Positions 1,403-63,279 of a DNA stretch of 64,000 bases are shown in pieces. The stretch is from contig CAMOID010000001.1 in the NCBI GenBank assembly GCA_946615975.1, positions 66,638 to 130,637 of the forward strand, in the 5' to 3' direction. The translations under genes were made by a program, and so were the position numbers. The notes under the pieces were generated by a model. That model was not told where the DNA came from. It was given only the letters and a program-made list of their open reading frames with translations, and searched no databases. The DNA comes from an uncultured Bacillales bacterium. Lineage in GTDB: Bacteria > Bacillota_I > Bacilli_A > RF39 > UBA660. Position 1 is the stretch's first letter. Each line of letters begins with the position of its first letter.

Positions 1403-1470
1403 AAAGTTGTTAAAAACTTATACATTATTAACAATAATAAATAATAAAAATTAATAAAAACTAACGTATT

Positions 1471-1479
1471 TGTGTATAA
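1471..1479. promoter_or_regulatory. Single DnaA-box-like 9-mer (TGTGTATAA, reverse complement TTATACACA) in the AT-rich dnaA-dnaN spacer
   Basis: One mismatch from the TTATCCACA consensus. It lies in the dnaA-dnaN intergenic region, where Bacillus-type oriC unwinding elements sit. I found only one box. Confidence 0.3.
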
Positions 1480-1554
1480 TTTAATAGTTTTCAACTTTAT
1501 AAACCCTATAATAAATAATAATATATTTAATAAAAAAGAAAGAAGGAATGGAAG

Positions 1555-2676: not shown

Positions 2677-2696
2677 TTAAAAATGTCTTTTTTTTT
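2665..2696 (+). terminator. Rho-independent terminator of dnaN
   Basis: 10-bp stem aagacatttt/aaaatgtctt with loop aatta, followed by a T-run. It overlaps the dnaN stop codon. Confidence 0.8.
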
Positions 2697-2757
2697 ACTT
2701 TAATATACCTTTTTATACTTTGTATTATGTTATTTTACCTCTCAAGGAGGTGAAAAT

Positions 2758-3207
2758 ATGAAAAAATATAATATTACAGATAATACATTAGCTATATTAC
2801 CTATGGGTGATAAAAATTCATTAGTATATGAAGTTGATAAAATGTTAGTTATTAACAATAAACCTAATAATATAATTAAATATAATTGTGAGATAGATGG
2901 TAGTTCATACGATATTAGAGTTAATTATTACAGAAATATAACTGGAAATATGTATAAATCCCCTATTCTAGTAAAAAATAGGAATTATTTAGTATTTTTT
3001 CCTACATGTTCTCCTAGGATTAAAAATGTATCATGGTTAAATATTAAATCTATTAATAATGTGTATTTAAATGAAGATAATAATAGTTCAGTAATAGAAC
3101 TTATTAATGGAGATAAAATTAATTTTAAAGAATCTTTATGGGCTTTAAATAATCAAATTTTAAAAGCAAGTAGATTTGAATTTTTATTAAGAAAAAAAGA
3201 GGCCTAA
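2758..3207 (+). CDS. ComK-family (competence transcription factor-like) protein
   Basis: Aligns by eye to B. subtilis ComK landmarks: 'NTLAILP' vs ATIAVLP, 'GSSYDIR' vs GSSYAGR, 'KSPILVKNRNYLVFFPTCSP' vs KPPIMVDPSNQIFLFPTLSS, 'VSWLN' vs CGWIS. Strong RBS 'aaggaggtg'. At 149 aa it is shorter than ComK. Confidence 0.65.
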   Translation: MKKYNITDNTLAILPMGDKNSLVYEVDKMLVINNKPNNIIKYNCEIDGSSYDIRVNYYRNITGNMYKSPILVKNRNYLVFFPTCSPRIKNVSWLNIKSINNVYLNEDNNSSVIELINGDKINFKESLWALNNQILKASRFEFLLRKKEA

Positions 3208-3316
3208 AAAGCCTTTTTTTCTTTTTTTAGTACTTATTTTGTGATATAATTATATTGTGGTATAGGAGTACCTAAAACATATAAAAATTGCTTAAAATCA
3301 AAATTAGGGGGTAAAA

Positions 3317-4414
3317 ATGAAAATTACGAGTTTAAAAATAAATAATTTTCGTAACTACAAAAAACTTGTTTTAGATTTTAATCCTTCTAAAAATATCATC
3401 ATTGGAAAAAATGGTATGGGTAAAACAAATATAGTTGAAGCTATCTATGTTTTAGCCTTAACTAAGTCTTTCAGAGGTTCTAAAGATGATGTAATTATTA
3501 AAATAAATGAAAATAATTGCAAAGTAGAAGGAACTGTAGTTGATGATTATAAAATTGATTATAAGATTGTTATAAGTAAAGATGAAAATAAGAAAGTATG
3601 GATAAATAAGAAAAAGATACCTAAATTGGTAGACTATTTATCTAATATTAATATTGTATTATTTACTTTAGATGATCTTAAGCTAGTAAAAGATACTCCA
3701 AATACTAGAAGAAAATTGATAAATATTGAACTATCTCAATTTAGTAATGATTATTTAAAAATAACTACTTTATATAATAAATTACTTAAACAAAGAAATT
3801 CTTATTTAAAAACTTTATATATTAATGGTAATGCTTCTCAAGAATATTTAGATATTATTACTGCTAAATTAATCGAATATGGCATGAAAATATATGAATA
3901 TAGATATAATTTTATAGAAGATATATCTAAATATATAACTAATAACTATAAGAAAATAACTGGTTTAGATAATTTAAAAATTGTTTATAAGTCAGATTTT
4001 TTAAACAAATCTTATGAAGAAATAGAAAAATTGTATAAAAAGAATAAAAATAGAGATATTACAAGTGGTATTACAAATATTGGAATACATAGAGATGATT
4101 TTGAGTTCGTATTAGATGAAAAAGTTTTAAAAGACTTCGGATCTGAAGGAGAACAAAAAAACGCTGTAATAGCTTTAAAAATGGCTGAGATAGAAATATT
4201 TAAAGATAAGAAAAACATTATTCCTATTTTAATATTAGATGATTTATTTAGTGAATTAGATAAAACTAAGATAAATAATATATTAAAATTTATTGATAAT
4301 GATATTCAAACATTCATTACTACAACAGAATTAAGCAAATTAAATAAGAAATTATTAAATGATTCTAAAATATTTGTTGTTAAAAATGGTGTAGTTGAAA
4401 TAAAGGAGAATTGA
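3317..4414 (+). CDS. recF: DNA replication/repair protein RecF
   Basis: Walker A '[13 protein letters not shown]', ABC signature 'GSEGEQKN', Walker B 'ILILDD'. Canonical position upstream of gyrB. Confidence 0.93.
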
Positions 4415-4415
4415 T

Positions 4416-6341
4416 ATGGCAGAAAATATTGAACATTATGACGCTTCCGATATTCAAGTGCTTGAAGGTCTAGAAGCAGTACGTAAAAGACCAGGTATGT
4501 ATATTGGTACTACTGATCTTAAGGGATTACATCATTTAGTATGGGAAATAGTAGATAATGCTATAGATGAAGCTTTAGCAGGATATTGTCATAATATTGA
4601 TGTAATTATTAATAAAGATAATAGTATTACTGTTAAAGATGATGGTCGTGGTATTCCAGTAGATATTCATCCAAAAACAGGTATATCAACAGTAGAAACT
4701 GTTTATACAGTATTACATGCTGGTGGTAAATTTGGTGGTGGAGGATATAAAGTATCTGGTGGATTACATGGTGTAGGTGCATCTGTAGTTAACGCATTAT
4801 CTAAATGGGTAGAAGTTAAAGTATATAAAAATGGTAAAATCTACTCTATTCGTTTTGAAAATGGTGGACATACTGTTGAACCATTAAAAGAAATTGGTAC
4901 ATATGAAGATAATAGAAGTGGTACTACTGTAACATTTAAACCAGATCCAGATATATTTGATTCTGAAATCTATGATTATGAAACATTAAAGACTAGAATA
5001 AGAGAATTAGCTTTCTTAAATAAAGGATTAGCTATTAATCTTAGAGATGATAGAGATGAAGAAGATACTACTGGAGATCATTTCTTATATGAAGGTGGTA
5101 TTAAAGAATACGTAAGATTTATTAATCAAGGTAAAACTCCTATTCATGAAGATATTATTTATTTTGAAGGTGAAGAAGATGGAGTTATGTTTGAAGTTGC
5201 AATGCAATATAACACTTCATACAATGACAATATTTATTCATTCGTTAATAATATTAATACACATGATGGTGGAACACATGAAGAAGGTGTTAGAAGAGCT
5301 TTAACTGCTTGTATTAATAAATATGCTCAAAAGAACGGTATTCTTAAAGAAAAAGATGATAATCTTACAGGAGACGATGTTAAAGAAGGTTTAACAATGA
5401 TTATTTCATGTAAGCACCCTAACCCACAATTTGAAGGACAAACAAAAGGTAGATTAGGTAACTCTGAAGTAAGAAAACTAGCTTCTGATGTATTTAGTCA
5501 AGGATTTGAAAGATTCTTATTAGAAAATCCAGAAGAAGCAAGAGCTATAGTACAAAAAGCTATGTTAGCTTGTAGAGCTAGAAATGCTGCTAAGAAAGCA
5601 AGAGAAATTACTAGAAAGAGTGAAATTGGACAAACTTCATTCTTTGGTAAATTATCTGACTGTAAGAGTAAAGATCCAGTTGAATCTGAAATATTTATAG
5701 TCGAAGGAGATAGTGCCGGTGGATCTGCTAAAAAAGGTAGAGATTCCATGACTCAAGCTATTCTTCCTTTAAGAGGTAAAATCTTAAATGTAGAAAAAGC
5801 TAGATTAGATAGAGCACTATCAAATGAAGAAATTAGAACTATTATTACAGCATTTGGTACTGGTATTGGTGATGAATTTGATTTAGAAAAATTAAGATAT
5901 CATAAAATAATAATCATGACCGATGCCGATGTCGATGGATCACATATTAGAGTATTATTATTAACATTATTCTATAGATTCTTTAGACCAATTGTTGAAG
6001 CTGGTTATGTATATGCTGCTCAACCACCATTATTTAGAATAATGCATGGTAAGACACGTAAATATGTATTGAATGATAAGGAAAGAGATGATTATATTAA
6101 TAATCTTGATCCTAAAGTTAAATATGAAGTTGCTCGTATGAAAGGTCTTGGTGAAATGGATGCCGATGAATTATACGAAACAACAATGGATATTAATCAA
6201 AGAGTATTAAGAAAGATTACAGTTAATGACTGTGTTGCTGCTGATGCTATATTTGAAAAACTTATGGGTGATGAAGTTGAACCTAGACGTGAATTTATAG
6301 TAGAAAATGCAGGATACGGAAATATTAACTTAGATATTTAG
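4416..6341 (+). CDS. gyrB: DNA gyrase subunit B
   Basis: '[16 protein letters not shown]', '[10 protein letters not shown]', '[12 protein letters not shown]', '[12 protein letters not shown]'. Confidence 0.98.
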
Positions 6342-6354
6342 GGAGGTTTTTAAA

Positions 6355-8982
6355 GTGGAAGAAGAAAATAAAAATATTGAAACTACTGAAGAAGTAGAAG
6401 AAACTGTTGAAAACCAATCAGATATCAACAAAGAAAATCATGATGCTTTAGATATACATAATAGTGAATTTAATGGATATTTCCATGAAAGAGATTCATT
6501 AGAAGAAAATAATATTGTAGATGAAGTTGGTACTTCATTCCTAGAATATTCGATGTCAGTTATTACTGCTAGAGCATTACCAGATTTAAGAGATGGATTA
6601 AAACCAGTTAATAGACGTATTTTATGGGCTATGAATGAATCTGGTTTATTTCCTGATAAACCTCATAGAAAATCAGCTACAACTGTTGGATATGTTATGG
6701 GTAATTATCACCCACATGGTGATAGTTCTATATATGAAGCAATGGTTAGAATGGCTCAAGATTTCAACCAAAGATATTTAATGGTTGATGGTCATGGTAA
6801 CTTCGGTAATATCGAAGGTGATGGAGCTGCAGCTATGCGTTATACAGAATCAAGATTATCTAAGTTATCTTTAGAAATGTTAAGAGATATTGATAAAGAT
6901 ACAGTAAATATGGATGATAACTTTGATTTTACAAAGAAAGAACCATCAGTCTTACCTTCTCGTTTCCCTAATATCTTAGTTAACGGTACTATGGGTATTG
7001 CAGTTGGTATGGCTACTAATATTCCACCTCATAATTTAGGTGAAGTTATTGATGGATGTGTTGCTTATATTGATAATCCTGAAATAGATACTAAAGGATT
7101 AATGCAATACATTAAAGGTCCTGACTTCCCTACTGGCGGTGTTATTTTAGGTAATAAAGGTATAATTGAAGCTTATGAAACAGGAAGAGGATCTATTACT
7201 ATTAGATCTAGAGCTGAAATTATTGAAGAAAATAATAAACAACAAATAGTTATAACAGAAGTTCCATATGGAACAAATACATTAGAATTAAAAAATAAAG
7301 TTGCAGAACTTGTTCATTCTAAGGTATTAGATGGTATATCTGATTATCATACTGATTTAAAAAATGGTGTTAAGATTACTATTACATTAAAAAGAGATGC
7401 TAATGCACAAGTTATTTTAAATAACTTATATAAACATACTGATTTCCAAAAAAATTATGGAATTATTCTATTAATGCTAGATAATGGAGTTCCTCGTACT
7501 TTAGGATTAAAATCAATTATTTCTAAATATATTGATTATCAAAAAGAAGTTATTATAAGAAGAACTAAATATATCTTAGGAAAAGCTGAAGATAGAGTTC
7601 ATATTCTTGAAGGTAGACGTATTGCTTTAGATCATATTGATGAAGTTGTACATATTATTAGAAATAGTGCTACTGAAGAAATAGCTAAAGCTGAATTAAT
7701 GTCTAGATTTGCATTATCTGATATTCAAGCTACTGATATCTTAAATATGAGATTAGGTAAGTTAACTGGATTAGAAAGAGATGCAATTGAAAATGAATTA
7801 AATGAATTAGCTGAAAAGATTGCTGATTATCATGATATTCTTGCTAAAGAAGAAAGAGTATTAGGAATAATTAAAGATGAAATGTTAGAAATTAAACGTA
7901 AATACGGCGATGAAAGACGTACTAACATTGATATGACAGCTATAGACTTTATTGAAGATGAATCATTAATACCTGAAGAAAACATTATGATTTCATTAAC
8001 AGATAAAGGATATATTAAGAGATTAACTACTGATACATATAGAACTCAACATCGTGGAGGTGTTGGTGTAAAGGGAATGTCAACTAACGAAGAAGACTAC
8101 GTTAAATTCTTGATTAATGCTTCAACTCATGATCACATTATGTTCTTTACTAATAAAGGTAGAACATATCGTATTAAAGGTTATGAAATTCCTGAATACA
8201 GCAGACAATCTAAAGGATTACCTATTATTAACCTACTTCAACTTGAAAAAGATGAAAAGATTAGTTCTGTAATTAAAGTAGCTAAAGATAATGATGCTAG
8301 ATTCTTAATCTTCGCAACTAAACAAGGTTTAATTAAGAAAACACCTATTGAAGAATTTGATAATATCAGAAAAACTGGTAAGATTGCTATCACATTAAAA
8401 GATAACGATGAATTAATAGATGTTTTATTAACAGACGGTACTTATAATGTTTGTTTAGGTTCTTCAGCAGGAAGAATGGTAGTATTTGATGAAAATGATG
8501 TTAGACCTATGGGTAGAACAGCATCTGGTGTTAAAGGTATTAATTTAGATGGTGCTGAATGCTTAGGTATGGATATTGCACATAATGAAGATAATATTTT
8601 AATAGTAACTAAGAATGGTTATGGTAAGAAAACTAAATTATCTGAATATAGATTAACTAAACGTGGATCTAAAGGTGTAACAGCTATTAATGTTACTGAA
8701 AAGAATGGTCCAATGGTAGCATTTAAGAATGCAACTGATGATGAAGACTTATTAATTATTACTGAATCAGGAATGATTATAAGAATTACAGTTGATTCTA
8801 TATCTCAATTAGGTAGAGTTACTCAAGGTGTTAGATTAATTAATCTTAAAGAAGATCAATATGTTTCAACTATTAGTTTAACTAGTAAAGACGATGAGGA
8901 TAATTCAGAGTTATCAACAATAGAAAATATTGAAGAATCCCCTACTCCAGTTGAAACTACAAATACTGAAGAAGAAGTTTAA
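6355..8982 (+). CDS. gyrA: DNA gyrase subunit A (GTG start)
   Basis: '[19 protein letters not shown]', active-site 'AAAMRYTE', C-terminal beta-pinwheel repeats. The N-terminal (about 55 aa) and C-terminal tails are acidic. Confidence 0.97.
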
Positions 8983-9469: not shown

Positions 9470-9475
9470 ATTTTT

Positions 9476-9550
9476 GCGCAACGGTTATATTGGAACCTGG
9501 TCAGAGTAGGAATACAGCAGCCATAACAGTCTCTAATCGTGTGCGCATTT
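9476..9550 (+). ncRNA. ffs: Small (4.5S-type) signal recognition particle RNA
   Basis: Terminal helix GCGCAACGGTTA pairs with TAATCGTGTGCGC (one bulge). Domain IV-like core 'cctGGTCAG..GGAA..CAGCAGCC'. Ends in a T-run. Sits in the tadA/dnaX neighbourhood as in Bacillus. Confidence 0.7.
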
Positions 9551-9566
9551 TTTAATGAGGTAGAGT

Positions 9567-23590: not shown

Positions 23591-23948
23591 GGGGTCGTTT
23601 TCTGGTTTCGACAGATTACAGTCCGGATTTAGTTGCAAGCGGAAGGTGATTGCCTTAAATCACACAGTTTAAATTAACTGACAATAATTTTAATTTTGCT
23701 CCAGTATACGCTTAATAACTAGCGTGGAGTGCTGATAGTTTAATCTTCTACAGTTAATCTATTGGTTCATATATGTAGAATATATCAAATGATTGTTTAC
23801 TCAAGATCAAATGATGAATATTTATTGAGTAACGCTAGTATTAGTTTGTTAGACGCTTTTTTACTAGTGTATTTGAGTTCTAACTAAGCTTGTAGATGCT
23901 ACTTCTTGAGTAATTTGGACGCGAGTTCGAATCTCGCCGACTCCACCA
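23591..23948 (+). ncRNA. ssrA: Transfer-messenger RNA
   Basis: 5' 'GGGGTCGTTTTCTGGTTTCGACAG', 3' 'GGACGCGAGTTCGAATCTCGCCGACTCCACCA'. Candidate tag ORF 23680-23712 reads DNNFNFAPVYA, followed by a TAA TAA double stop. Confidence 0.9.
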
Positions 23949-28476: not shown

Positions 28477-30207
28477 TTACATTTTATTAACTTCATCAAT
28501 TGCTAATATATTAAGTAAATTACTTAATGTATTATAAACTAATTTAGATAATGCTATATATGTATTTTTATATTCTTCATTAGTTTCATTTGAGATATTG
28601 TGATCTCCATAGAACTTATTAAATAATGAAGATAATTCATATATAAAATCACATATATAATTTAATGAAGCATCTTGATAACTTGCTGTTAAAGATTTTG
28701 GTAATTCAGTTAATTTAACTAATATATCTCTTACTTCTTGATTTGGAATGTTAGTAAGTGATGTGTTTTCAACATTAACTTTATTTAATAATGATTTAAT
28801 TCTTGTTGTTGTATATACTGCATATATTCCTGTTTTACCAACAAATTCAGTAAATTTTTCTACATCAAATATATAATCTGTTCTTCTTTGTGGAGTAAGA
28901 TCTGAATATTTTAATGTTGCTAATGTTAATTTATCAGCTATATCTCTTCTTTCTTCTCCAGTAATCTCTTCTTTAATCTTAGGTTCTATTTCATCATGTA
29001 CTAATTTAATTAAACCTTTTAGTGACATTACACCACCATCACGAGTTTTAAATGGTTTTCCATCTTTTCCGTTTATTGTACCGAATCCACAGAATCTTAA
29101 TACTGTATCGTCGTTAACAATTCCAGCTTTTTTAACACCTCTGAATGCTTGTTCAAAGTGTAATGATTGTCTTTCATCAGTGAAATACCATATTTCATCT
29201 GGATTCCAATCTTTCATTCTTTGATATATAGTAGCTAATTCAGTTGTATCATATAGAATAGCTCCATCTGATTTAACTAACATTAGTGGTGGCATTTCTT
29301 TGTTATCTGTTTCTTCTTTAACATGCATGATTAATGCACCATCAGATTCTTCAGCTAAACCTTTTTCTTTTAATATATTTAATACATCATTAACATAAGG
29401 AGCAGCGTTTGATTCACCGTATGAATAATCAAATTTACAATTTAAATAATCATATATTTTTTCAGCATCTTTTTCAGATGTATTAACAATATGTTTCCAT
29501 AAAGCTAAAAGTCCTTTATCACCATTTTGTAATCTTTCAGTTATTGCTTTAGCTTCTTCAGCGTATTGTTCATCTTCTTTTTTCTTTAAAGATGCTCTTG
29601 GATATATAACTCCTAATTCTTCATTTGTTACTGGTGATTCAGTTGGATATTCTCCATCAAAGTTTGGATCAAAATAAGGTAATTCAGGATACATTTCTTG
29701 AATTTCTCTTATAACTAATCCCATTGGTGTTCCCCAGTCACCCCAGTGTACATCTGATATTGTTTCATCACCAAATACATTTAATAATCTTCTTACAGCT
29801 TCACCAATATTACATCTAAAATGACCAACATGCATTTCTTTAGCAATATTAGCACCACCGTAATCTAATACTATTTTTCTTTTCTTTTCATTTTTATCTA
29901 CATAGTTATCGAAGTTATTCATTGATTCATTTGCATCTTTTAATAATGTTTCATCACTTATACTAATATTAATAAATCCAGGTCCTTGAATATTAACATT
30001 AGTAAATCTATTATCAAATTTATCTACTATTTCTTGTGCAATTTCTCTTGGATTCTTTCCTGCTTGTTTTGCAAGAGACATAGCTGCATTAATTTGATAA
30101 TCTCCAAATTCTTTCATTTTAGATTTCTCGATTTTTACATCTGTTTCATATCCTAAATCTTTAATAACTTCATTAACATATTGTTCTAAATCTTTAATTA
30201 AGCTCAT
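28477..30207 (-). CDS. argS: Arginyl-tRNA synthetase (ATG at 30207; the ORF-track GTG at 30216 lies inside the RBS gggtga)
   Basis: 'ANIAKEMHVGHFR' HIGH-type motif, Arg-tRNA-synthetase N-terminal domain, C-terminal DALR anticodon-binding region. Confidence 0.93.
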   Translation of the reverse strand: MSLIKDLEQYVNEVIKDLGYETDVKIEKSKMKEFGDYQINAAMSLAKQAGKNPREIAQEIVDKFDNRFTNVNIQGPGFINISISDETLLKDANESMNNFDNYVDKNEKKRKIVLDYGGANIAKEMHVGHFRCNIGEAVRRLLNVFGDETISDVHWGDWGTPMGLVIREIQEMYPELPYFDPNFDGEYPTESPVTNEELGVIYPRASLKKKEDEQYAEEAKAITERLQNGDKGLLALWKHIVNTSEKDAEKIYDYLNCKFDYSYGESNAAPYVNDVLNILKEKGLAEESDGALIMHVKEETDNKEMPPLMLVKSDGAILYDTTELATIYQRMKDWNPDEIWYFTDERQSLHFEQAFRGVKKAGIVNDDTVLRFCGFGTINGKDGKPFKTRDGGVMSLKGLIKLVHDEIEPKIKEEITGEERRDIADKLTLATLKYSDLTPQRRTDYIFDVEKFTEFVGKTGIYAVYTTTRIKSLLNKVNVENTSLTNIPNQEVRDILVKLTELPKSLTASYQDASLNYICDFIYELSSLFNKFYGDHNISNETNEEYKNTYIALSKLVYNTLSNLLNILAIDEVNKM

Positions 30208-30227
30208 TATTATCACCCTTTTTTAAT

Positions 30228-30425
30228 TAAAAAAATCCTATAATATAAGGACGACTATATCGTGGTACCACCTTATTTCATAGGATTATCTATCTCTTAT
30301 CTTTATAGCAGATCTGCTTTTAAACTCCAAGGTGCGTTCATAAAACATAATATGGATCTCTCACCAACCGATACCTCACTGTATATTATTGGTTTTACTA
30401 ATATTCCTCTTCTTCGTTTAAGTTG
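30228..30425 (-). promoter_or_regulatory. T-box leader (Arg specifier) controlling argS
   Basis: The minus strand reads 'GGTGAGAG', 'GAA-CGC-A' (the codon is gcg on the + strand at 30334-30336), T-box 'AAATAAGGTGGTACCACG', and a terminator aatcctat../..ataggatt plus a T-run. Confidence 0.85.
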
Positions 30426-34614: not shown

Positions 34615-34688
34615 GGAGCTTTAGCCAAGTGGTAAGGCAAGGGACTGCAACTCCCTGAGCACCAGTTCGAATCTGGTAGGCTCCTCCA
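34615..34688 (+). tRNA. tRNA-Cys (GCA)
   Basis: Acceptor ggagctt/aggctcc (one G-U pair), anticodon stem aggga/tccct, loop ctGCAac, T-arm accag-ttcgaat-ctggt, encoded CCA. TGaTATAAT promoter at about 34592-34600. Confidence 0.9.
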
Positions 34689-55066: not shown

Positions 55067-56296
55067 ATGGTAGTAATAGTTTATTATATACTATTTATAT
55101 TTTGTTTATTATATTCAATGTATTTCTTTTTTACATCTCTATGGGGATTTAAAGGAATGCATAAATCGATAATAAAAAAACATAAAGAAAAATATAAAAT
55201 TGCTTGTTTAATAGCTGCACGTAATGAAGAACAAGTTGTTCCTTCATTAGTTAAGTCATTATTAAGACAAGATTATCCAAAAGAATTATTTGATGTATTT
55301 GTTATTCCTAATAACTGTACAGATGATACAGAAGGTGCTGCTAGAAAAGCAGGAGCTAAAATAATTGATGTAACTATTCCTGTTAAAAGTAAAGGTGAAG
55401 TATTAAAATTTACTTTTGATAAGTTAAAAGATGAAGATTATGATGCATATATTATTTTCGATTCAGATAATATTGTTGATAAGAACTTTGTTAAAAGAAT
55501 GAATGATACATTATGTGATGGTTATGAAGTAGCACAAGGTTATAGAGATTCAAAAAATGCTGGTGATAACTGGATTACTGGATCTTATTCAATCTTCTAT
55601 TGGATTCAAAACTTCTTCTTTAATAGAGCTAGAATGTATATAAATGGTTCTGCTTCTATTAATGGTACTGGTTTTATGATTAAGAAATCTGTTATTGAAG
55701 CTGAAGGATTCCAAACTTATACATTAACAGAAGATGTTGAATTTACTGCTCAATGTGCTATTAAGAATAGAAGAATTGCCTTTGTTGAAGATGCAATTAC
55801 TTATGATGAACAACCATTACAATTTGGTGCTTCATGGGTACAAAGAAGTAGATGGACAACTGGTAACTTACAATGTTTTGCTAGATATGATTTAAAGTTA
55901 ATTAAAGCTTTCTTTAAAAATCATAATATTGCTGCATTAGATATGGCTTTATTATTCTTTGCACCAATGTTCCAAGTATTAGGATTTGTTTTAATGATAG
56001 TATTAATTCTATTTAAAACATTTGGTATTGAATTAGTTGATATGTTCTCATATTTATTTGCATATGGAGCTTTATTCTTCATATTAGGATATATTGGTAA
56101 CTTTATATTAAATGTATTTATAGTTAAATATAATAGAAATAATAAAGTATTAAATCTTATTTGGGGTATTTTATTCTTCCCATTATTCTTATTAACTTGG
56201 GTACCAATTAATATTAAGTGCTTAATTAAAAGAGATTCTAAATGGAAAGAAATTAAACATACAAGAAGTATTAATATTGAAGAGATTGATAATTAA
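55067..56296 (+). CDS. Membrane-embedded processive family-2 glycosyltransferase
   Basis: N-terminal TM segment, 'IAARNEE', 'FDSDN', 'TEDVEF', 'QRSRW' (QxxRW) and about 4 C-terminal TM segments. Confidence 0.82.
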   Translation: MVVIVYYILFIFCLLYSMYFFFTSLWGFKGMHKSIIKKHKEKYKIACLIAARNEEQVVPSLVKSLLRQDYPKELFDVFVIPNNCTDDTEGAARKAGAKIIDVTIPVKSKGEVLKFTFDKLKDEDYDAYIIFDSDNIVDKNFVKRMNDTLCDGYEVAQGYRDSKNAGDNWITGSYSIFYWIQNFFFNRARMYINGSASINGTGFMIKKSVIEAEGFQTYTLTEDVEFTAQCAIKNRRIAFVEDAITYDEQPLQFGASWVQRSRWTTGNLQCFARYDLKLIKAFFKNHNIAALDMALLFFAPMFQVLGFVLMIVLILFKTFGIELVDMFSYLFAYGALFFILGYIGNFILNVFIVKYNRNNKVLNLIWGILFFPLFLLTWVPINIKCLIKRDSKWKEIKHTRSINIEEIDN

Positions 56297-56310
56297 ATCT
56301 CTTCTTTTTT
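56281..56310 (+). terminator. Rho-independent terminator of the GT2 gene
   Basis: Stem agagatt/aatctct with an 8-nt loop, followed by tctttttt; overlaps the stop codon. Confidence 0.7.
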
Positions 56311-56311
56311 A

Positions 56312-56320
56312 TGCTATAAT
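56312..56320 (+). promoter_or_regulatory. Extended -10 (TGcTATAAT) starting the radical SAM operon
   Basis: Exact TGnTATAAT directly after the terminator T-run, 16 nt before ATG 56337. Confidence 0.55.
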
Positions 56321-56336
56321 TATTCTAGGTGAGAAT

Positions 56337-58172
56337 ATGAAAAAAAGATATCTATTTTATTTAATTATTTGTTTATTAATACCTACTATTGTTTTTGCAA
56401 AATCAAACTCAAATGATTTAGATGAAATTCCTGCTTTTGGATATGCATTATTTATTAGTATTTTTCATCTTGTTTTTATTCTTATGCCTATAATGTCTTC
56501 TAGAAATAGTGAGTTTAAATTCTCTACTAAAGATACAATTAAATACTATGCTATTTTAGTTGGATTAAACGCTATTATATGTGATGCTTTTGGTGTAGTA
56601 GGAATGGCTATTGGTTTCTTTTCAGTATTTGTCATTGGTTTTCCAGCTATGTTTTTTATGTCATCAGGTGGATTTAGAGAAAAAGTAAATGATCCTATTA
56701 ATGTTGATCCTTCAAAAGTAATTGAAGGATGTGATACTGATAAAGGTCTAATTATTAAATGCTTAAAATGTGGTAATAGAATCACAGTTAATAATAAATA
56801 TTGTGATGCATGTGGTGCTGATGTACAAGGTAATAATGTTAAAGTAGAAAAGAAAGATGCTTCTGAATTAGCATTGCAATTAAAATCTTTTGATAATATG
56901 TATGCTAAATCAGAAGAAGAACTTATTAAACTTATAATTACAAATGAATGTAAGAGTTTAGGATTAGATCTTAATACTAAATTAATACCTAGAAGTGAAA
57001 AAGTTAGATATATTATTTTAGATATTATATTTTGTGTTCTATTATTCTTATTTATTGGTTTAATATTCTATCATGTATCAATTAGAATATATGCAATAGG
57101 AATAGTAATATTAATTTTATTCTTTATTAAAAAGAATAAATTTGATTTATATAATTACTTATATAAAGAAGTTAAAGCTAGACCAAATGAAAATATAGAT
57201 AATATTATAGGTGCTTTAAAAGAAAATTTAGTTCCTAAAGAAGAAATTGTTACTAGAATATTATTACCTATCTTAGTAGTATTAATTAGTTTAATTATAT
57301 TTAAAGATCCAATTATATTATATGAACCATTGGAAGATGGATATGCTGTAAGATTTTACTTTACTGGTTTGAGTAGTTTGACTCATGCTACAATTCCTGA
57401 AGAACATAATGGTAAAAAAGTTATTTCTTTAAGAGGTAATGCTTTTTCAAATATGCCTTTATTAAATGAAGTATATTTACCTGATAGTATATATGAAATT
57501 AGAGGCGAAGCATTTAAGAATGATTTCTTATTAAAGAAAGTTCATTTACCTGCTAATCTTAAGTATTTAGGTGGTGAATCATTTTATCATTGTATTAATT
57601 TAGAAGAAGTTAATTTCACATATGAAATGCCACTTGAAGAAATTAAGGGAAATACTTTTGAAGGATGTACATCATTAAAGAAAATTGTTATACCTGATTC
57701 AGTTACTAGAATAGGTGGACATGCATTCCATGGTGATGAATCATTAAGTGAAGTTAGTATATCTGAACATAGTTCTTTAACTCAAATTGGATCATCTGCA
57801 TTTAGAGAATGTACATCATTAAAAGAAATAATTTTACCTATGTATGCAACATATGAATCTAATTCATTTAAAGGTTCATATACTAAAATATCTAAATATG
57901 GTTCAGATAATGATTATTTAATAGGAACTATGAATTTAGAATTAGATGATGTTAAATCATATACTTTACCTGAATATGGAACAATTAAATTAAATTACTA
58001 TTCTTATAATGCTACTAAAGGTCTTCATAAGGTAGATATATATGGTGCAGTTAATAAAAATATTTCATTTGTAGATAATTATAAATATTATATAAATGAT
58101 ACAAATTATATTGAATTTGAATCAACAGACACTTCTGAAATAGTTGTATATTTTTACAAAGTTTGGAGATGA
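56337..58172 (+). CDS. Polytopic membrane protein with an internal zinc ribbon and a C-terminal BspA-type leucine-rich-repeat domain
   Basis: Start at 'MKKRYLFYLIICLL' (signal/TM segment). 'CLKCGNRITVNNKYCDACGADV' zinc ribbon. About 7 TM segments. LRR units such as 'LKKIVIPDSVTRIGGHAFHGDESL' and 'LKEIILP'. Confidence 0.7.
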   Translation: MKKRYLFYLIICLLIPTIVFAKSNSNDLDEIPAFGYALFISIFHLVFILMPIMSSRNSEFKFSTKDTIKYYAILVGLNAIICDAFGVVGMAIGFFSVFVIGFPAMFFMSSGGFREKVNDPINVDPSKVIEGCDTDKGLIIKCLKCGNRITVNNKYCDACGADVQGNNVKVEKKDASELALQLKSFDNMYAKSEEELIKLIITNECKSLGLDLNTKLIPRSEKVRYIILDIIFCVLLFLFIGLIFYHVSIRIYAIGIVILILFFIKKNKFDLYNYLYKEVKARPNENIDNIIGALKENLVPKEEIVTRILLPILVVLISLIIFKDPIILYEPLEDGYAVRFYFTGLSSLTHATIPEEHNGKKVISLRGNAFSNMPLLNEVYLPDSIYEIRGEAFKNDFLLKKVHLPANLKYLGGESFYHCINLEEVNFTYEMPLEEIKGNTFEGCTSLKKIVIPDSVTRIGGHAFHGDESLSEVSISEHSSLTQIGSSAFRECTSLKEIILPMYATYESNSFKGSYTKISKYGSDNDYLIGTMNLELDDVKSYTLPEYGTIKLNYYSYNATKGLHKVDIYGAVNKNISFVDNYKYYINDTNYIEFESTDTSEIVVYFYKVWR

Positions 58173-58176
58173 CATC

Positions 58177-59913
58177 ATGGATTATAAATATATACATTTA
58201 TTGTATGTTCCAACTATGGCTTGTAATATGCAATGTAAGTATTGTTACTTAGAAGATAATACGAAAGATATTAATACTAAATATAATGAAGTAGATACTT
58301 TAAAATATGCTATAGAAAAGTTTAAAAAGAGTAATGTTATACCATTTAATATTTCACTTCATGGAGGAGAAGTTACAACATTAAGTAAAGAATCATTCCA
58401 TGATATTATTAAATTAATAAGTGATTATTATAATGAAAATAAAGATATTATTAAAGCTGGAGGATTTAATGTTGGTAATCCTCATATTAAAACTAATATG
58501 TATGCTTTAGATAAACATATAGATACAATAAAAGAATTTAATGTATCTATATCAGGGAGTTTAGATTTACCTTTAAAATTACATGATAAATATCGTGTAA
58601 CTAAAGGTGATAAAACGACATTAGATAAGATTTTATCTAATATTGAATTGATGAAAGATATTCCTAATAAAAAGAAAGTATCTGCAACTATTTTTAAAGA
58701 ACATTTTGAATATTTAGATGATATTGTTGAAGATATAAAATGGTTAAATAAAAATACATGTTTAGATATGAATGATTTTAATTTTATGATTGGATTTGAT
58801 TATAATTCAAATGGAATATTACATCATATAACAGAAGAAGAACAAATTAAATTATATGAAAGAATGCATGAAGAATTTGATAATACTGATTTAGATGCAG
58901 GAGTAAATGGACCTTGGTTTGATGAATTTGGACCAGGTTATTGCTCTAATTGTGATAACTGTGGATCTAAGTTTTTCTTACTAGAAAAAAATGGAGATAT
59001 TTATTCATGTGTAAGAGGACAAAAGAATAAAGATTATTATTATGGTAATATATATGATAATACTGTAGAAGAAATATTAGAAACAGCATTAGGTAAAATA
59101 TTTAGAAATCATAACAAAATGGAATTTAATGAAGATTGTTCTAAATGTGGGTATTTATATTTATGTAAGACTGGTTGTCCATTTGTAAAAAACACATATA
59201 AAACAAATAAAAGTTATACTTGTTTATTACAACAAAGAATGTATAAAGATAGAAACTATGAACAAGATATTAACAATGAATTTGTTCCAGTTTATTTAAG
59301 TAATATGAGATTAGGAGATAATAGCAAGTATTATCCTGAAAATAAAAATAATTTATATCCAGATATAAAAGATATTATAAATGAAGACAAGAATCTTAAA
59401 TATATATATGATCCTGATTCATTTATATTAAATATAGATGGAGAAGAATATAAATTAGAATCTCAAATATTAAAAAATAATAGAGATATCATTTATGTTA
59501 CACCTGAATCTAAAGTGTTTATTTATATGAAAAAACATTTAATTGAAGAAGTATGTGATTATCCTGAAAATAATTCATTATATATTATGTTATTATCAGG
59601 TAATTTAGTTACATATGGAGATGAAGGTAGAACTAAACAAAGACATATAAATACAAATCAAATATATAAAGGTGTATTAGATAATATTAAAAGTGATAAA
59701 AAAGATTATTATAAATATGATATAAGTAATTATATTAAAGAATATAAAGATTATTATTCAGATGAAAATCCTAATAATATATTTTTTACTACAAGTAGTT
59801 TAAGAGATTATCATTATAATAAACAAAAAAATAATGCTTATTATCATATACAAGCAATTAATTTACCATTTCAAAATATTGAATTTTATTATGTAGAAGG
59901 GAGTAATGATTAA
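58177..59913 (+). CDS. Radical SAM enzyme with a complete SPASM domain and an uncharacterised about 210-aa C-terminal extension
   Basis: Start ATG 58177 after RBS ggaga. C16-x3-C20-x2-C23 ('MACNMQCKYCY'), 'HGGEVTTL' SAM motif. SPASM 'NGDIYSC' (G-x4-C) and 'CSKCGYLYLCKTGCP' (C-x2-C-x5-C-x3-C). Confidence 0.85.
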   Translation: MDYKYIHLLYVPTMACNMQCKYCYLEDNTKDINTKYNEVDTLKYAIEKFKKSNVIPFNISLHGGEVTTLSKESFHDIIKLISDYYNENKDIIKAGGFNVGNPHIKTNMYALDKHIDTIKEFNVSISGSLDLPLKLHDKYRVTKGDKTTLDKILSNIELMKDIPNKKKVSATIFKEHFEYLDDIVEDIKWLNKNTCLDMNDFNFMIGFDYNSNGILHHITEEEQIKLYERMHEEFDNTDLDAGVNGPWFDEFGPGYCSNCDNCGSKFFLLEKNGDIYSCVRGQKNKDYYYGNIYDNTVEEILETALGKIFRNHNKMEFNEDCSKCGYLYLCKTGCPFVKNTYKTNKSYTCLLQQRMYKDRNYEQDINNEFVPVYLSNMRLGDNSKYYPENKNNLYPDIKDIINEDKNLKYIYDPDSFILNIDGEEYKLESQILKNNRDIIYVTPESKVFIYMKKHLIEEVCDYPENNSLYIMLLSGNLVTYGDEGRTKQRHINTNQIYKGVLDNIKSDKKDYYKYDISNYIKEYKDYYSDENPNNIFFTTSSLRDYHYNKQKNNAYYHIQAINLPFQNIEFYYVEGSND

Positions 59914-60302
59914 TGAAAGCAAATGAACCAAAATCATATCAAGGAATAATTAATAAAAAGAGAATGTATGAAATAGTTAAAGCTTATGATATATCTCAAA
60001 ATGTATATGATTTAATATTAAACTTTAAGACTGAAAATCCTAATGGAAAAGTTGAATGTGGTAAAAGATATATTACTCTTATTAAAGATAATGAAATCGT
60101 TCAATATATAGATGCTCCTATAAAATCTATTTCATATGATGGAATAATATGGGATGGAGATAAGTTTAAATTAATTGAACATTATGTTGCTCCTTCCTAT
60201 AGTAGTAGTAGTTGGTCTTCTGGTGGAAGTAGCTGGTCTTCAAGTGGTGGAGGATCATCTAACAACAATAACAATAATAACAATAACAACAATAATAGAT
60301 AG
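59913..60302 (+). CDS. 129-aa protein with a C-terminal SYSSSSWSSGGSSWSSSGGGSS-N12-R tail (candidate substrate of the flanking radical SAM enzymes)
   Basis: The ATG overlaps the upstream stop (TAATG) and follows RBS gaagggag. The tail is encoded at 60195-60299 and contains the tandem unit SWSS(S)GG x2. There is no signal peptide or TM segment. Confidence 0.65.
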   Translation: MKANEPKSYQGIINKKRMYEIVKAYDISQNVYDLILNFKTENPNGKVECGKRYITLIKDNEIVQYIDAPIKSISYDGIIWDGDKFKLIEHYVAPSYSSSSWSSGGSSWSSSGGGSSNNNNNNNNNNNNR

Positions 60303-60313
60303 GGTTGGTATAT

Positions 60314-61321
60314 ATGGTATATGTATCTGATGTGTTTCATAAAAAGAAATTAGATAGTAAAAAGATTAACATTAAAACTATATATTTAGTTGATGGTATT
60401 AGATATGAAAGAAATACTGATGGATCTAAAGATGATAATATAACTAATGGTATTAGAGTAAAAAAAGAATACTACTTAAATAATGAATTAAAACATACTG
60501 AACATGAATTTGATACAAGAATAGAATATAGTTTTGTTGAAAATGAAAATAGTAATAAAAATTATACATGTCCAAATTGTGGAATGACTGCTAAATTAAA
60601 AGAATTTAATGGCGGTTGTCCTTATTGTGGTACATATTATAATTTAGATTATAAAGATAAAGATTTAGGTAGTAAAAAATATTATGATAGAGTTTTAAGA
60701 AATAAATCTTATAGATTAATATCTGCAATTATAGATGCTATAATTTGCTTTTTAATATCATTTATCATAATTAAGAATACTTCTAGAACATTTAATATAA
60801 ATGATTTTTATAAGATATTTGTATTTGGTAGTATAGCATCTTTATTATTTTATTATGTATTCTATATAGTAGATGCATATGTAATACTAGGACCTATAAA
60901 AAGATATAAAGATAAACAAAATGAATTACAAAAAGATTTTTGGAAAAAGAGTGGTTTAGATAAAGTAACATTCTTTAATAATTTTAATTATGAAGTAAGA
61001 AAATATTATTACAATAAAGAAGATGTTATTGATTATGACATAATTGATTTTGATTCTTTTAAAGATTATACAATTAAAGATGATAGATATGTAGAAGTAG
61101 AAGCTTATATTAGAGTTGTTTATTTTGATGGAGATTTTCGTTCAAATTTTAAAAAGAAAATATTTAGATTTAAACAAAATAAAAATGGAACTACTAAGCT
61201 AGGTAAAGGTACAAATATAATGATGTGCCATAACTGTGGTGCTTCTATAGATGTAACTAAGAGTAAATGTGATTACTGTGATTCTGAAATTAAATATTTA
61301 CAAGAATGGATATTACAATAA
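60314..61321 (+). CDS. Two-TM membrane protein with N- and C-terminal zinc ribbons (possibly a Tim44-like C-terminal domain)
   Basis: 'CPNCGMTAKLKEFNGGCPYCG', TM hairpin 'LISAIIDAIICFLISFIII'/'IFVFGSIASLLFYYVFYIV', 'CHNCGASIDVTKSKCDYCD'. Start ATG 60314 or TTG 60305. Confidence 0.65.
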   Translation: MVYVSDVFHKKKLDSKKINIKTIYLVDGIRYERNTDGSKDDNITNGIRVKKEYYLNNELKHTEHEFDTRIEYSFVENENSNKNYTCPNCGMTAKLKEFNGGCPYCGTYYNLDYKDKDLGSKKYYDRVLRNKSYRLISAIIDAIICFLISFIIIKNTSRTFNINDFYKIFVFGSIASLLFYYVFYIVDAYVILGPIKRYKDKQNELQKDFWKKSGLDKVTFFNNFNYEVRKYYYNKEDVIDYDIIDFDSFKDYTIKDDRYVEVEAYIRVVYFDGDFRSNFKKKIFRFKQNKNGTTKLGKGTNIMMCHNCGASIDVTKSKCDYCDSEIKYLQEWILQ

Positions 61322-62121
61322 TGTTTAAAAAAGTATATGTAGAAATAACAAATAATTGTAATTTAGATTGTAGTTTTTGTATTGGTAATAAAAGAGAAAA
61401 GAAGTTTATAGATATAGATTCTTTTGAAATATTATTAAATAAGTTAGAAGGATATACTGATTATTTATATTTTCATGTAATGGGTGAACCTTTATTACAT
61501 CCTAAGATAAATGATCTTATTAATATTGCTTCTAATAAATATAATATTAATATCACTACAAATGGTTATTTAATTAATAGAATTAAAGATAATAAAAATA
61601 TAAGACAGATAAATATATCATTACATTCATTTGATGATAAATATAAAACAACTCTAGATGAGTATATGAATAATATATTTGATTCAGTTGATGAATTAAG
61701 TAAAAATACTTATATTGAATATAGAATGTGGGTAGATAATGTTAATAAAGATAAAATTATTAACAAATTAGAAGAAAAATATAATATATCTATTGGTGAT
61801 ATTGATCATATTACTTTAGATAAAAATGTATTTTATCAAGTTGAACAAGAATTTATTTGGCCTGATATAAATAATTCTTATTATGAAGAAGAAGGCACTT
61901 GTATGGGTACTAGAAGCCATATAGGTATATTAGTAGATGGAACTGTAGTTCCATGTTGTTTAGATAGTAATGGATCTATTAATTTAGGTAATATATATGA
62001 ATCTAGTTTAGATGATATTTTAAATGGTGAATTATATTCTTCAATTAAAGAAGGATTCTTAAATAATAAAAAGATTCATCCTATGTGTAGACATTGTAAT
62101 TTTTATGAATTAAAGAGATGA
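61321..62121 (+). CDS. Short radical SAM enzyme with a partial SPASM/twitch-like C-terminus
   Basis: The ATG overlaps the upstream stop (TAATG). C13-x3-C17-x2-C20 ('NNCNLDCSFC'), 'HVMGEPLL', 'DGTVVPCC' (G-x4-C), terminal 'CRHC'. Confidence 0.82.
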   Translation: MFKKVYVEITNNCNLDCSFCIGNKREKKFIDIDSFEILLNKLEGYTDYLYFHVMGEPLLHPKINDLINIASNKYNINITTNGYLINRIKDNKNIRQINISLHSFDDKYKTTLDEYMNNIFDSVDELSKNTYIEYRMWVDNVNKDKIINKLEEKYNISIGDIDHITLDKNVFYQVEQEFIWPDINNSYYEEEGTCMGTRSHIGILVDGTVVPCCLDSNGSINLGNIYESSLDDILNGELYSSIKEGFLNNKKIHPMCRHCNFYELKR

Positions 62122-62140
62122 TTTATCATCTTTTTATTTT
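62116..62140 (+). terminator. Rho-independent terminator ending the radical SAM operon
   Basis: Stem agatga/tcatct with loop ttta, followed by ttttattttt; overlaps the TGA stop. Confidence 0.65.
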
Positions 62141-62180: not shown

Positions 62181-63279
62181 ATGAATATAAATGAATTAAA
62201 AAGTGAATTATTAAATCTTAAAACAAATATTATTGATATTGGGAGGTCACTTTGACTTAGATAATAAAAAATCTAAAATAAGTGAATTAGAATCTAAATT
62301 AAGTAATCCAGATATTTGGAATAATCCGGATGAAGCTAATAAATATAATCAAGAATTAGCTGGATTAAAAAAAGATATATCACAATATGATAATCTATTA
62401 TCAAATATCGATAATAATATTGAACTTCTACAATTATTAGAAATAGAACCTGATGATAATGAGTTGAAGAATATAGAATCAGAATTAGATAATATAAAAA
62501 AAGAAGTTGATGAATTTCAAATTAAATCATTATTAAATGGTGAATATGATTCTGGTAATTGTTATTTAGAAATACATCCTGGAGCTGGAGGTACTGAATC
62601 TTGTGATTGGGCTTCTATGTTACTTCGTATGTATACAATGTTTTTTGATAAGTTTGGTTTTAAATATAGTATATTAGATCAACAACCTGGTGAAGAAGCA
62701 GGTATTAAATCAGTTATGGTATATGTTGAAGGTATGTATGCATATGGTTATTTAAAATCAGAAATAGGTGTTCATAGATTAGTTAGAATTAGTCCTTTTA
62801 ATGCAGCTGGTAAAAGACAAACATCATTTGCTGCAGTAAATGTAACACCTGAGTTTAATGAAGTATCTAAGGATATAGAAATTAAAGATGAAGATATAAG
62901 AGTTGATGTTTATAGATCTTCTGGTAATGGTGGTCAAGGAGTTAATACAACTGATTCAGCAGTTAGAATTAGTCATATTCCTACTGGAATAGTTGTTACT
63001 TGCCAAAATGAAAGAAGTCAATTAAGAAATAAAGAAACAGCAATGAAGATCTTAAAAAGTAAGTTATATCAATTAGAAGTTGAAAAACAAAATAAAGAAA
63101 TTAATGATTTAAAAGGTAATGCTAATATAGATTTTGGTAGTCAAATACGTAATTATGTATTAGAACCTTATACATTAGTTAAAGATCAAAGAAGTGGATA
63201 TGAAACATCTCAAGCATATAAAGTTTTAGATGGCGATTTATATCAATTCATTGATTCTTATTTAAGAATAAAGAGGTAG
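62181..63279 (+). CDS. prfB: Peptide chain release factor 2, made by a programmed +1 frameshift (62181..62252 joined to 62254..63279)
   Basis: Frame 0 reads MNINELKSELLNLKTNIIDIGRSL then TGA. Shifting +1 at CTT-T-GAC continues DLDNKKSKISELE. 'SGNGGQGVNTTDSAVRI' contains the GGQ motif. Confidence 0.95.
62241..62256 (+). other. RF2 autoregulatory frameshift site: SD-like GGGAGG, then CTT TGA C
   Basis: gggaggtcaCTTTGAC matches the canonical bacterial prfB recoding signal. Confidence 0.92.

Follow-up and report, generated by a model that had tools for sequence, protein, structure and literature searches.

A radical SAM/SPASM enzyme family and its asparagine-tailed neighbour proteins: a candidate protein-modification system of gut Bacilli and Campylobacter-type prophages

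The 64-kb stretch of DNA analysed here, which as a whole is called the window, belongs to an uncultured Bacillales bacterium (contig CAMOID010000001.1), and the unit under study occupies its positions 56312-62140, where five co-directional genes, g1 to g5, lie between 56.3 and 62.1 kb. The second gene, g2, encodes a radical S-adenosylmethionine (SAM) enzyme with a SPASM domain, and the third, g3, a small protein ending in a run of asparagine (Asn) residues. The conserved unit consists of the four genes g1-g2-g3-g4, not five, and across genomes, prophages and metagenomes the enzyme has a nearly perfect neighbour link with an Asn-tailed protein. Most likely, as this comparative evidence suggests, the enzyme family recognises and modifies the Asn-run tail of its neighbour. 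We lean towards the reading, which we hold to be somewhat better than evenly supported, that g2 founds a branch of SPASM radical SAM protein/peptide maturases whose signal is a disordered tail leading from small residues into an Asn run. It would be a protein-directed radical SAM system that has not been described before, probably bringing a new protein modification; new here are the C-terminal domain of g2, the Asn-run substrate signature, and the link to phage tail fibres.

The enzyme g2 (58177-59913, plus strand; 578 amino acids, aa) is a member of the radical SAM/SPASM superfamily (PF04055 plus PF13186/TIGR04085), which is defined by a CX3CX2C motif together with a seven-cysteine SPASM motif binding two auxiliary [4Fe-4S] clusters. 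It carries CX3CX2C and the full SPASM cysteine set, and is matched by Pfam (Radical_SAM, 1.4e-10; SPASM, 5.8e-06), by NCBIfam (TIGR04085, 42 bits against a cut-off of 27) and by phrog_1802. Eight cysteines (C256, C262, C278, C321, C324, C330, C334, and C349) are invariant family-wide, and in the alignment the SPASM cysteines are invariant in both the cellular and the prophage branches. As the protein begins straight at the CX3CX2C motif, it has no N-terminal recognition element (RRE) of the kind known from ribosomally synthesised and post-translationally modified peptides (RiPPs). Its C-terminal domain of ~230 aa is specific to the family and shows the motifs YGDE.R.K..HI and FFTT..LR.YHY.K..N..YH...NLPF; this domain had no Pfam match, with nothing at E values up to 5. 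In a structural model of g2 (mean predicted local distance difference test, pLDDT, 66) the nearest folds were anSMEcpe, then ChlB, SuiB, SkfB, and PDB 5WHY, a sactipeptide thioether-forming enzyme, and the two nearest, anSME and ChlB, both work on protein or peptide substrates; a search with the g2 sequence against PDB gave a best E value of 0.3. A defence-system identity for the cassette was considered and discarded, as PADLOC returned weak generic viperin-like matches to the radical SAM core only.

The g3 gene (59913-60302, plus strand; 129 aa) begins within the stop codon of g2, the two codons overlapping as TAATG. Its product ends SYSSSSWSSGGSSWSSSGGGSS-N12-R; the C-terminal tail, PSYSSSSWSSGGSSWSSSGGGSS-N12-R, is encoded at 60195-60299 (plus strand), with the Asn run at 60261-60296, and represents the proposed site of both recognition and modification. 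In an AlphaFold2 model, residues 1-94 are folded into two helices and five strands (pLDDT above 90), followed by a disordered tail of residues 95-129. The fold had no match in PDB or BFVD, including no match to any RRE structure of PDB, and on these grounds g3 was ruled out as an RRE or a known fold; it is also without a family match in Pfam and NCBIfam, and profile comparison found it dissimilar to g2, g4 and the prophage neighbours described below. A 51-aa open reading frame (ORF) that crosses the tail in another frame (60175-60330), in which the Ser/Gly/Asn codons read VVVVGLL...TTITIITITTII, is an artefact of the tail repeat and not a gene, and database 'proteins' such as P0267 are frameshifted calls of the same kind.

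The pairing of g2 and g3 was followed through a scan of one genome per species, in which relatives of g2 occurred in at least 219 species-level genomes; 80 of these loci were fetched, and with 10 further loci reached through g3 homologues they make up the ~90 loci referred to below. All 80 fetched loci hold g2 (66-99% identical to that of the window), accompanied by g1, g3, and g4 wherever the contig extends far enough; g1 is typically ~40%, g4 ~54% and the folded part of g3 30-40% identical to its counterpart in the window. Likewise, the contigs of g3 homologues present an LRR (leucine-rich repeat) protein, an enzyme of ~575 aa, the tail protein, and a zinc-ribbon protein of ~337 aa, and no second radical SAM gene is among them. 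In 88 of the 90 loci a g3-type ORF of ~105-129 aa has its start at most a few bases from where g2 stops (the genes overlap by as much as 14 nt or stand 1-3 nt apart), and of the two remaining loci one stops at the g2 stop codon and the other holds a g2 fragment only. Homologues of g3 are few: a word-indexed search gave just 16, with the W/Y-SSGGGSS-Nn-R tail as their best-conserved part, and a hidden Markov model (HMM) of the folded domain reached 180 clusters among 1.84 billion representatives, where nearly all full-length members possess the Asn run and the exceptions are fragments or frameshifted calls. Had homologues of g3 been common without a radical SAM neighbour, its role as a substrate would have become doubtful, but they are rare and lie directly after the enzyme in every context examined. 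The assumption that the small protein is the substrate thus gains from this comparison: g3 is very probably a partner or a substrate of g2.

The tail is the part of g3 under the strictest constraint. Among 83 distinct Bacilli-type tails the consensus reads ...IPHY-x-PSS...(Y/S)-S-G-G-S-S-S-N(9-17)-R, in which the two serines preceding the Asn run are invariant (83/83), the glycines nearly so, and the terminal arginine is found in 69; the folded domain, in contrast, is only 30-40% identical between loci. A divergent subgroup of g3 ends ...GDGGSSG-N10-G/A. Since the stretch that joins the folded domain to the GGSSS motif differs in length, the small-residue motif keeps its place with respect to the Asn run and not to the folded domain. 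The original prediction had emphasised a tail rich in Ser and Trp; the passage from Ser/Gly into the Asn run is indeed kept, but the tryptophan is not, being present in 11 of 83 tails, so that a role for it is not borne out, and 13 of the 83 have no aromatic residue at all within the 12 positions before the run. Furthermore, the Asn run of g3 is the sole (AAY)8 tract in the window, where 0 are expected by chance; Asn codons in the tails are mixed (AAT:AAC 63:37, compared with 85:15 in g2), and the tail persists at 44-50% GC (Lachnospiraceae, Bacteroidales) and in a contig of 62% GC. The mixed codons and the retention of tails at 44-62% GC rule out slippage or AT bias as their cause.

A second branch of the family came from a protein search of annotated phage and plasmid records, which retrieved homologues of g2 in Campylobacter phage CAM-P21 and in a prophage on Campylobacter coli NZ_CP082878.1 (33.7% identity over 99% coverage); the latter record is listed as a plasmid in PLSDB. 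The prophage enzymes are 33-35% identical to g2 overall, g2 aligns with that of CAM-P21 from end to end, C-terminal domain included, and its match to phrog_1802 (E 4.5e-40) joins residues 11-570 to positions 49-549 of the 556 in the profile. In the prophages, these genes form part of the tail-fibre module: baseplate genes come first, then the tail fibre, a 211-aa chaperone-like protein and the radical SAM gene itself, followed by DUF1353, a fibre-like protein, and sheath; the tail fibre beside the enzyme homologue ends ...AISYAPSGSTNNNNY. Thirteen prophage loci were compared, some with enzymes that share just 63-67% identity with that of CAM-P21, and in every one the fibre encoded two genes upstream of the enzyme ends in small residues and an Asn run (...SGSTNNNNY, ...GATNNNNY, ...GSSNNNNY, ...STGNNF, ...SMGNNS, ...SSGNNF, and ...SCNNNNN), although these fibres range from 284 to 689 aa and have unrelated distal domains. 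Such endings occur on 14 of the 161 ORFs of the 13 loci, and 13 of the 14 are the fibres. Relatives that share the N-terminal domain of the fibre but lack the enzyme (C. jejuni CJIE1/CGC-2007 and a Helicobacter pullorum prophage) have fibres ending ...SIVSFMELR and ...CSFIRYS, followed by a shorter protein of 168 aa. The chaperone type seems to vary in step with the enzyme and the ending of the fibre: the 211-aa chaperone-like protein (L097, 5351-5986) accompanies the enzyme, as opposed to the 168-aa one of the enzyme-less CJIE1 (L110, 1400-1906), the latter reported in the literature as DUF4376/Tfa-like. Profile comparison found no homologues of g1, g3 or g4 in the prophage loci; the DUF1353 protein (128 aa) and a 337-aa protein there, tried as counterparts of g3 and g4, are of equal size without homology, a coincidence.

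The pairing also holds in metagenomes, from which we took 80 loci of more than 435 confirmed matches, ordered by similarity to the prophage enzyme, and counted as Asn-tailed any ORF with at least four consecutive Asn within its last 22 residues. An Asn-tailed ORF adjoins the enzyme in 73 of these 80 loci, and the remaining seven have a contig border inside ~500 nt on the relevant side or in the enzyme gene itself, whereas none of 668 control ORFs from the same loci has such a tail. The partners are diverse: prophage fibres ending ...SCNNNNGG; small ORFs in pairs, with the endings ...APSNNNNNNGG and ...ASHNNNNH; in L139-L143, a tandem of two small Asn-tailed ORFs together with a ~145-aa protein upstream of the enzyme; small proteins ending ...NNNGNNNNSCSGGW (L138/L144); proteins of 120-156 aa with Asn runs of at least 20, followed by a ~290-aa membrane protein (L146/L149/L152/L158); and, on the 62% GC contig (L206), a 129-aa enzyme neighbour ending ...FTNNNNNNNNNG. 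Neighbours in these divergent branches had no significant Pfam or PHROG match, save weak PHROG matches of one L144 protein. Of the 114 ORFs whose C-terminus is rich in Asn, taken from prophage, Oscillospiraceae and metagenome loci, 63 contain the folded domain of g3; the other enzyme-adjacent partners are tail fibres or other small proteins, besides a few chance endings elsewhere in the loci. As the g3 domain is confined to these 63, the tail is the sole feature common to the partners. We propose the name 'Asn-tail radical SAM' family for an enzyme with the YGDE...FFTT..R.YHY...NLPF signature beside an Asn-tailed neighbour, a combination found in 88 of the 90 loci of the genome scan and g3 look-ups, in 13 of 13 prophage loci and in 73 of 80 metagenome loci; g2 and g3 of the window belong to it. 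This family is not described in Pfam, NCBIfam or the literature searched.

The two other members of the unit are membrane proteins. The first gene, g1 (56337-58172, plus strand), encodes a polytopic protein of 611 aa with a C-terminal BspA-type LRR_5 domain (Pfam, 3.8e-31) and a weak match to Zn_Ribbon_1 (CLKCG...CDACG); from its hydrophobic segments and the positive-inside rule, the zinc ribbon is predicted to be cytoplasmic and the LRR_5 domain to face outward. Upstream of the enzyme gene, a homologue of g1 is present in 75 of the 80 species-level loci, in six of the 10 loci fetched via g3 homologues, and in an Oscillospiraceae locus (L095). The protein g4 (60314-61321, plus strand; 335 aa, or 338 aa from an alternative TTG start at 60305) is arranged as an N-terminal domain, a zinc ribbon, two transmembrane segments, a soluble domain, and a second zinc ribbon. 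Both ribbons are of the form CxxC...CxxC and their cysteines (C86, C89, C102, C105, C305, C308, C319, and C322) are invariant; a functional match for g4 was sought and only zinc-ribbon matches were obtained, in Pfam weak ones to DZR and zinc ribbons. A homologue of g4 follows g3 in ~80 loci and is missing from the Oscillospiraceae and Bacteroidales versions. In one database protein, P0268 (274 aa; ENA contig of 2087 bp), a g3-like domain with a short tail, ...SSGGGGGGSSSNNNN, is fused to a C-terminal LRR_5 domain, which may hint at a connection of g3 and g1 in the manner of a Rosetta stone, or may be an assembly or frameshift chimera.

In the mechanism we envisage, g2 would be translated together with g3 and would bind its tail, probably via the family-specific C-terminal domain; it would then generate a 5'-deoxyadenosyl radical and take a hydrogen at or near the Ser-to-Asn junction, and the two auxiliary clusters could finish the oxidation or a cross-link. 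As a Ser, Thr or Cys is always within three residues of the Asn run, a beta-carbon oxidation like that of anSME is possible. Asparagine is itself a precedented radical target, as DynA and the Asn-directed thioether enzyme NxxcB act at its beta-carbon, so that a cross-link to Asn is possible as well, whereas epimerisation is less likely because there is no conserved non-cluster cysteine that could act as hydrogen donor. The product would most likely be a modified protein terminus and not a released, variable antibiotic peptide, since the tail is invariant, a protease or exporter is lacking, and the partner in prophages is a structural fibre. Modified g3 might then act at the membrane with g1, through its outward LRR domain, and with g4, while Campylobacter-type prophages would put the same enzyme-tail pair on receptor-binding tail fibres. 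That the tail is the substrate is suggested by translational coupling, by co-occurrence over phyla, GC contents and genomic contexts, by the disorder of the tail, and by the kinship of g2 with protein- or peptide-modifying SPASM enzymes. More tentatively, and as a possibility that we would not yet call probable, the reaction could be a new modification of C-terminal poly-asparagine tails, perhaps with new chemistry at Asn or Ser, by which phages finish their fibre tips and gut Bacillota and Bacteroidota pair the product with a surface LRR protein.

Several points weigh against this interpretation. The link between enzyme and tail is purely comparative, and the structural model of g2 is of moderate confidence only (pLDDT 66). 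The residue directly before the Asn run varies between branches (S, T, G or C), and the last residue of the protein varies as well (R, G, A, H, Y, F or S), so that no single target atom can be named. Furthermore, g3 is without a signal peptide, although its conserved partner g1 displays a predicted extracellular domain, and protease, transporter and RRE are all absent from the cassette. Finally, the H-fibres of CJIE1 work with their chaperone alone, which bears only indirectly on the question as these are of the enzyme-less type; the studies of CJIE1 H-fibres used enzyme-less types and leave the radical SAM gene unmentioned (PMC7882524, PMC11464564).

The same observations could be read as a classic RiPP, in which g3 would be a precursor with a long leader and its tail the core, cut off and exported as a signal or antimicrobial. 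The translational coupling of a SPASM enzyme to a small protein with a disordered C-terminal stretch speaks for this, as do the tandem tail-bearing small ORFs of L139-L143, which resemble multi-precursor RiPP clusters, and the conserved IPHY-x-P motif before the tail, a possible cleavage site. However, neither the cassette nor its variable flanks contain a protease, an ABC/PCAT exporter or an immunity gene, the supposed core is nearly invariant while the leader diverges, opposite to most RiPPs, and the prophage tail terminates a structural fibre of 284-689 aa; we consider this explanation unlikely, if still worth serious attention. Somewhat less likely again, in our view, is that the Asn-run tail is a mere docking tag for the domain at the C-terminus of the enzyme, whose chemistry would then take place on the folded part or on another molecule. 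The length of the Asn run, from 4 to more than 26, would suit a handle or spacer, and most g3 homologues have a cysteine at position 18 of the folded domain; yet this Cys18 is missing in the window's own g3, the folded parts of the partners are unrelated between branches and so offer no common second site, and it is the beginning of the Asn run, not the folded domain, with respect to which the small-residue motif keeps its place.

The proposal from which the analysis started, a five-gene, two-enzyme system whose radical SAM proteins both act on a Trp-containing tail, has become very improbable and was rejected through neighbourhood analysis and the location of g5 homologues. The domain features given earlier for g1 to g5 are present, and the gene run with its junctions (a 4-nt gap, a TAATG overlap, ~11 nt and a second TAATG overlap) is present in the sequence as described; the TAATG overlap of g4 and g5, found in the window and in L001, speaks for the view that g5 (61321-62121, plus strand), by Pfam and NCBIfam a 266-aa radical SAM protein with a short SPASM, belongs to the set. 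Nevertheless, two radical SAM enzymes flanking a substrate do not form one conserved unit, as among the ~90 loci g5 stands beside the cassette only in the two nearest relatives (L001, L011). Its family is very large, with at least 8000 matches, and consists of stand-alone radical SAM proteins, ~267 aa long and equipped with a short SPASM, which in related gut Bacilli (L091, L092, and L094) lie between uvrB and uvrA, followed in two of the three by a DUF7666 protein; ubiquity and the uvrB-uvrA position mark g5 as an unrelated neighbour. The best NCBIfam match of g5 is W_rSAM_matur (72 bits against a cut-off of 380), and Trp, as noted, is found in only 11 of the 83 tails. That the tail is meaningless low complexity of an AT-rich genome (the window has ~25% GC) and the gene order coincidental is scarcely credible, being refuted by the uniqueness of the tract in 64 kb, the mixed Asn codons, the tail of the 62% GC contig, and the 0/668 tailed control ORFs compared with 73/80 loci with a tailed enzyme neighbour.

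Comparison with known systems places the enzyme close to protein- and peptide-modifying SPASM enzymes. The impression that the set fits no named system stands: every NCBIfam match lies far under its cut-off, and neither Pfam nor NCBIfam has a match to g3; the best matches of g2, namely DynA, anSME, and PapB, each reach roughly a quarter or less of the required score. The enzyme anSME (TIGR03942; PDB 4K36-4K39) is the best structural match (Foldseek E 2e-9) and, like g2, has its radical SAM core at the N-terminus, no RRE, and a full SPASM with two auxiliary clusters; its substrate is a whole protein, from which it abstracts hydrogen at the beta-carbon of Ser or Cys, and the tails described here always have a Ser, Thr or Cys near the run. 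On the other hand, g2 scores 91.1 bits against a cut-off of 349.45, no sulfatase gene is found in the cassette or its flanks, g3 has no (C/S)-x-(P/A)-x-R motif, and anSME is without the ~230-aa C-terminal domain. DynA is the best NCBIfam match (9.9e-27), with 94 bits against 450, and the darobactin/dynobactin families (NF038005, NF041298) gave 94 against 450 and 65 against 650 bits; the substrates of DynA, DarE, and NxxcB are short peptides with Trp or Cys partners, whereas here Trp (11/83 tails), other aromatics and Cys are dispensable and the partner is a folded protein or a phage fibre.

The His-Xaa-Ser system (HxsB/HxsC with the HxsA repeats) likewise places a SPASM enzyme beside a Ser-rich repetitive substrate, but HxsB (TIGR03978) covers only residues 4-186 of g2 (66 bits against 370), H-x-S repeats do not occur here, and the second radical SAM gene, g5, stands outside the system. 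The pathways of pyrroloquinoline quinone (PqqA/PqqE) and mycofactocin (MftA/MftC) are comparable in their invariant C-terminal substrate motif and in an enzyme conserved throughout a lineage, unlike hypervariable antibiotic RiPPs; they differ in that the cassette and flanks contain no RRE partner of PqqD/MftB type, no peptidase, and no tailoring genes, that the HMM scores of g2 are far under the cut-offs, and that the prophage tail sits on a structural fibre. Among the ranthipeptide/sactipeptide maturases, whose substrate cores carry the Cys of the thioether links, PapB (NF047865) gave 77 against 340 bits, and cysteine is absent from the 12 residues before the Asn run in the 83 Bacilli-type tails, occurring there only in some divergent members; the three-residue cyclophane formers (XyeB, GrrM, FxsB, YhhB, and AmcB) gave 28-58 bits against 310-450, and the aromatic-x-x pattern present in each of their substrates is not general here, as the 13 of 83 tails without a nearby aromatic illustrate. 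The family phrog_1802, which includes the CAM-P21 and NZ_CP082878.1 enzymes, is truly homologous to g2 over the full length and is also paired with an Asn-tailed protein; it differs in its 33-35% identity and in its partner, a receptor-binding fibre that lies two genes upstream and is separated from the enzyme by a chaperone-like gene, and for this 'radical SAM domain-containing protein' no function was reported in the literature searched.

No conserved flanking gene or mobile-element context was found for the cassette. At most 8 of 79 loci have any one flanking family in common, and in IMG/VR the Bacilli-type cassette appears on a single contig. The position just upstream of prfB, which the window shows, recurs in distant lineages (L014, L063, and L080), and in L069 prfB lies further downstream of the cassette; in these four, g2 is 71-76% identical to that of the window, whereas the release factor RF2 is merely 49-55% identical, and the 30-60% identity of their g1, g3, and g4 argues against recent transfer of the whole cassette. 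Constraint on g2 is thus unusually tight for a lineage-specific enzyme. The idea that the set sits in accessory DNA has become doubtful, given a host-like composition, presence in at least 219 species-level genomes and the position before prfB in several distant lineages. Four loci (L030, L059, L066, and L078) carry the Bacilli-type cassette at 23-27% GC under the labels Roseburia, Paratractidigestivibacter, Acidaminococcus fermentans, and Muribaculaceae, which are probably binning errors of the source metagenome-assembled genomes (MAGs) and not true hosts. Reduced versions also exist: a Bacteroidales MAG holds the enzyme and tail protein alone, and the Oscillospiraceae MAG locus L095 has an LRR_5 membrane protein, an enzyme sharing 54% identity with g2, and a g3-like protein whose last residues read ...GGSSG-N8-TNHG, but no g4.

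Much new protein chemistry comes from SPASM radical SAM enzymes, and the Asn-run tail could serve as a simple, recognisable substrate signature for a family present in no fewer than 219 species-level genomes and at over 435 metagenome loci, among its carriers uncultured gut Bacilli of which little biology is known. The prophage link suggests an enzymatic modification of the fibre tip, which would bear on engineering the host range of phages and tailocins in Campylobacter; if true, it would be the first case of a virion structural protein modified by a radical SAM enzyme, and could point to a shared 'tip chemistry' where microbes meet phages or hosts.

With regard to the borders of the unit, a terminator-like hairpin with a T-run (56279-56304) closes the upstream GT2 gene and directly precedes TGCTATAAT (56312-56320, plus strand), an extended -10-like element read directly from the sequence, 17 nt before the start codon of g1. 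The candidate promoter proposed there is present as a motif but is not distinguishable from chance, because the region is AT-rich and yields 71 promoter-like matches compared with 79 in shuffled sequence. The terminator hairpin suggested after g5 is a weak AT-rich stem of 6 bp that a hairpin scan missed. Downstream, prfB displays its programmed +1 frameshift site (62182-62262; a Shine-Dalgarno-like GGGAGG, then TCA CTT TGA C), with a short upstream frame from the ATG at 62182 and a main frame running to 63279. The window opens with dnaA, dnaN, recF, gyrB, and gyrA (53-8982) and its cumulative GC skew climbs throughout; this gene order and the rising skew put the cassette on the leading strand, at a distance of ~56 kb from the origin of replication. 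Rfam matches at gathering score comprise a small signal recognition particle RNA (9470-9555), a transfer-messenger RNA (23591-23948), one tRNA (34615-34685), and a T-box leader on the minus strand (30244-30423), upstream of the minus-strand gene at 28477-30216.

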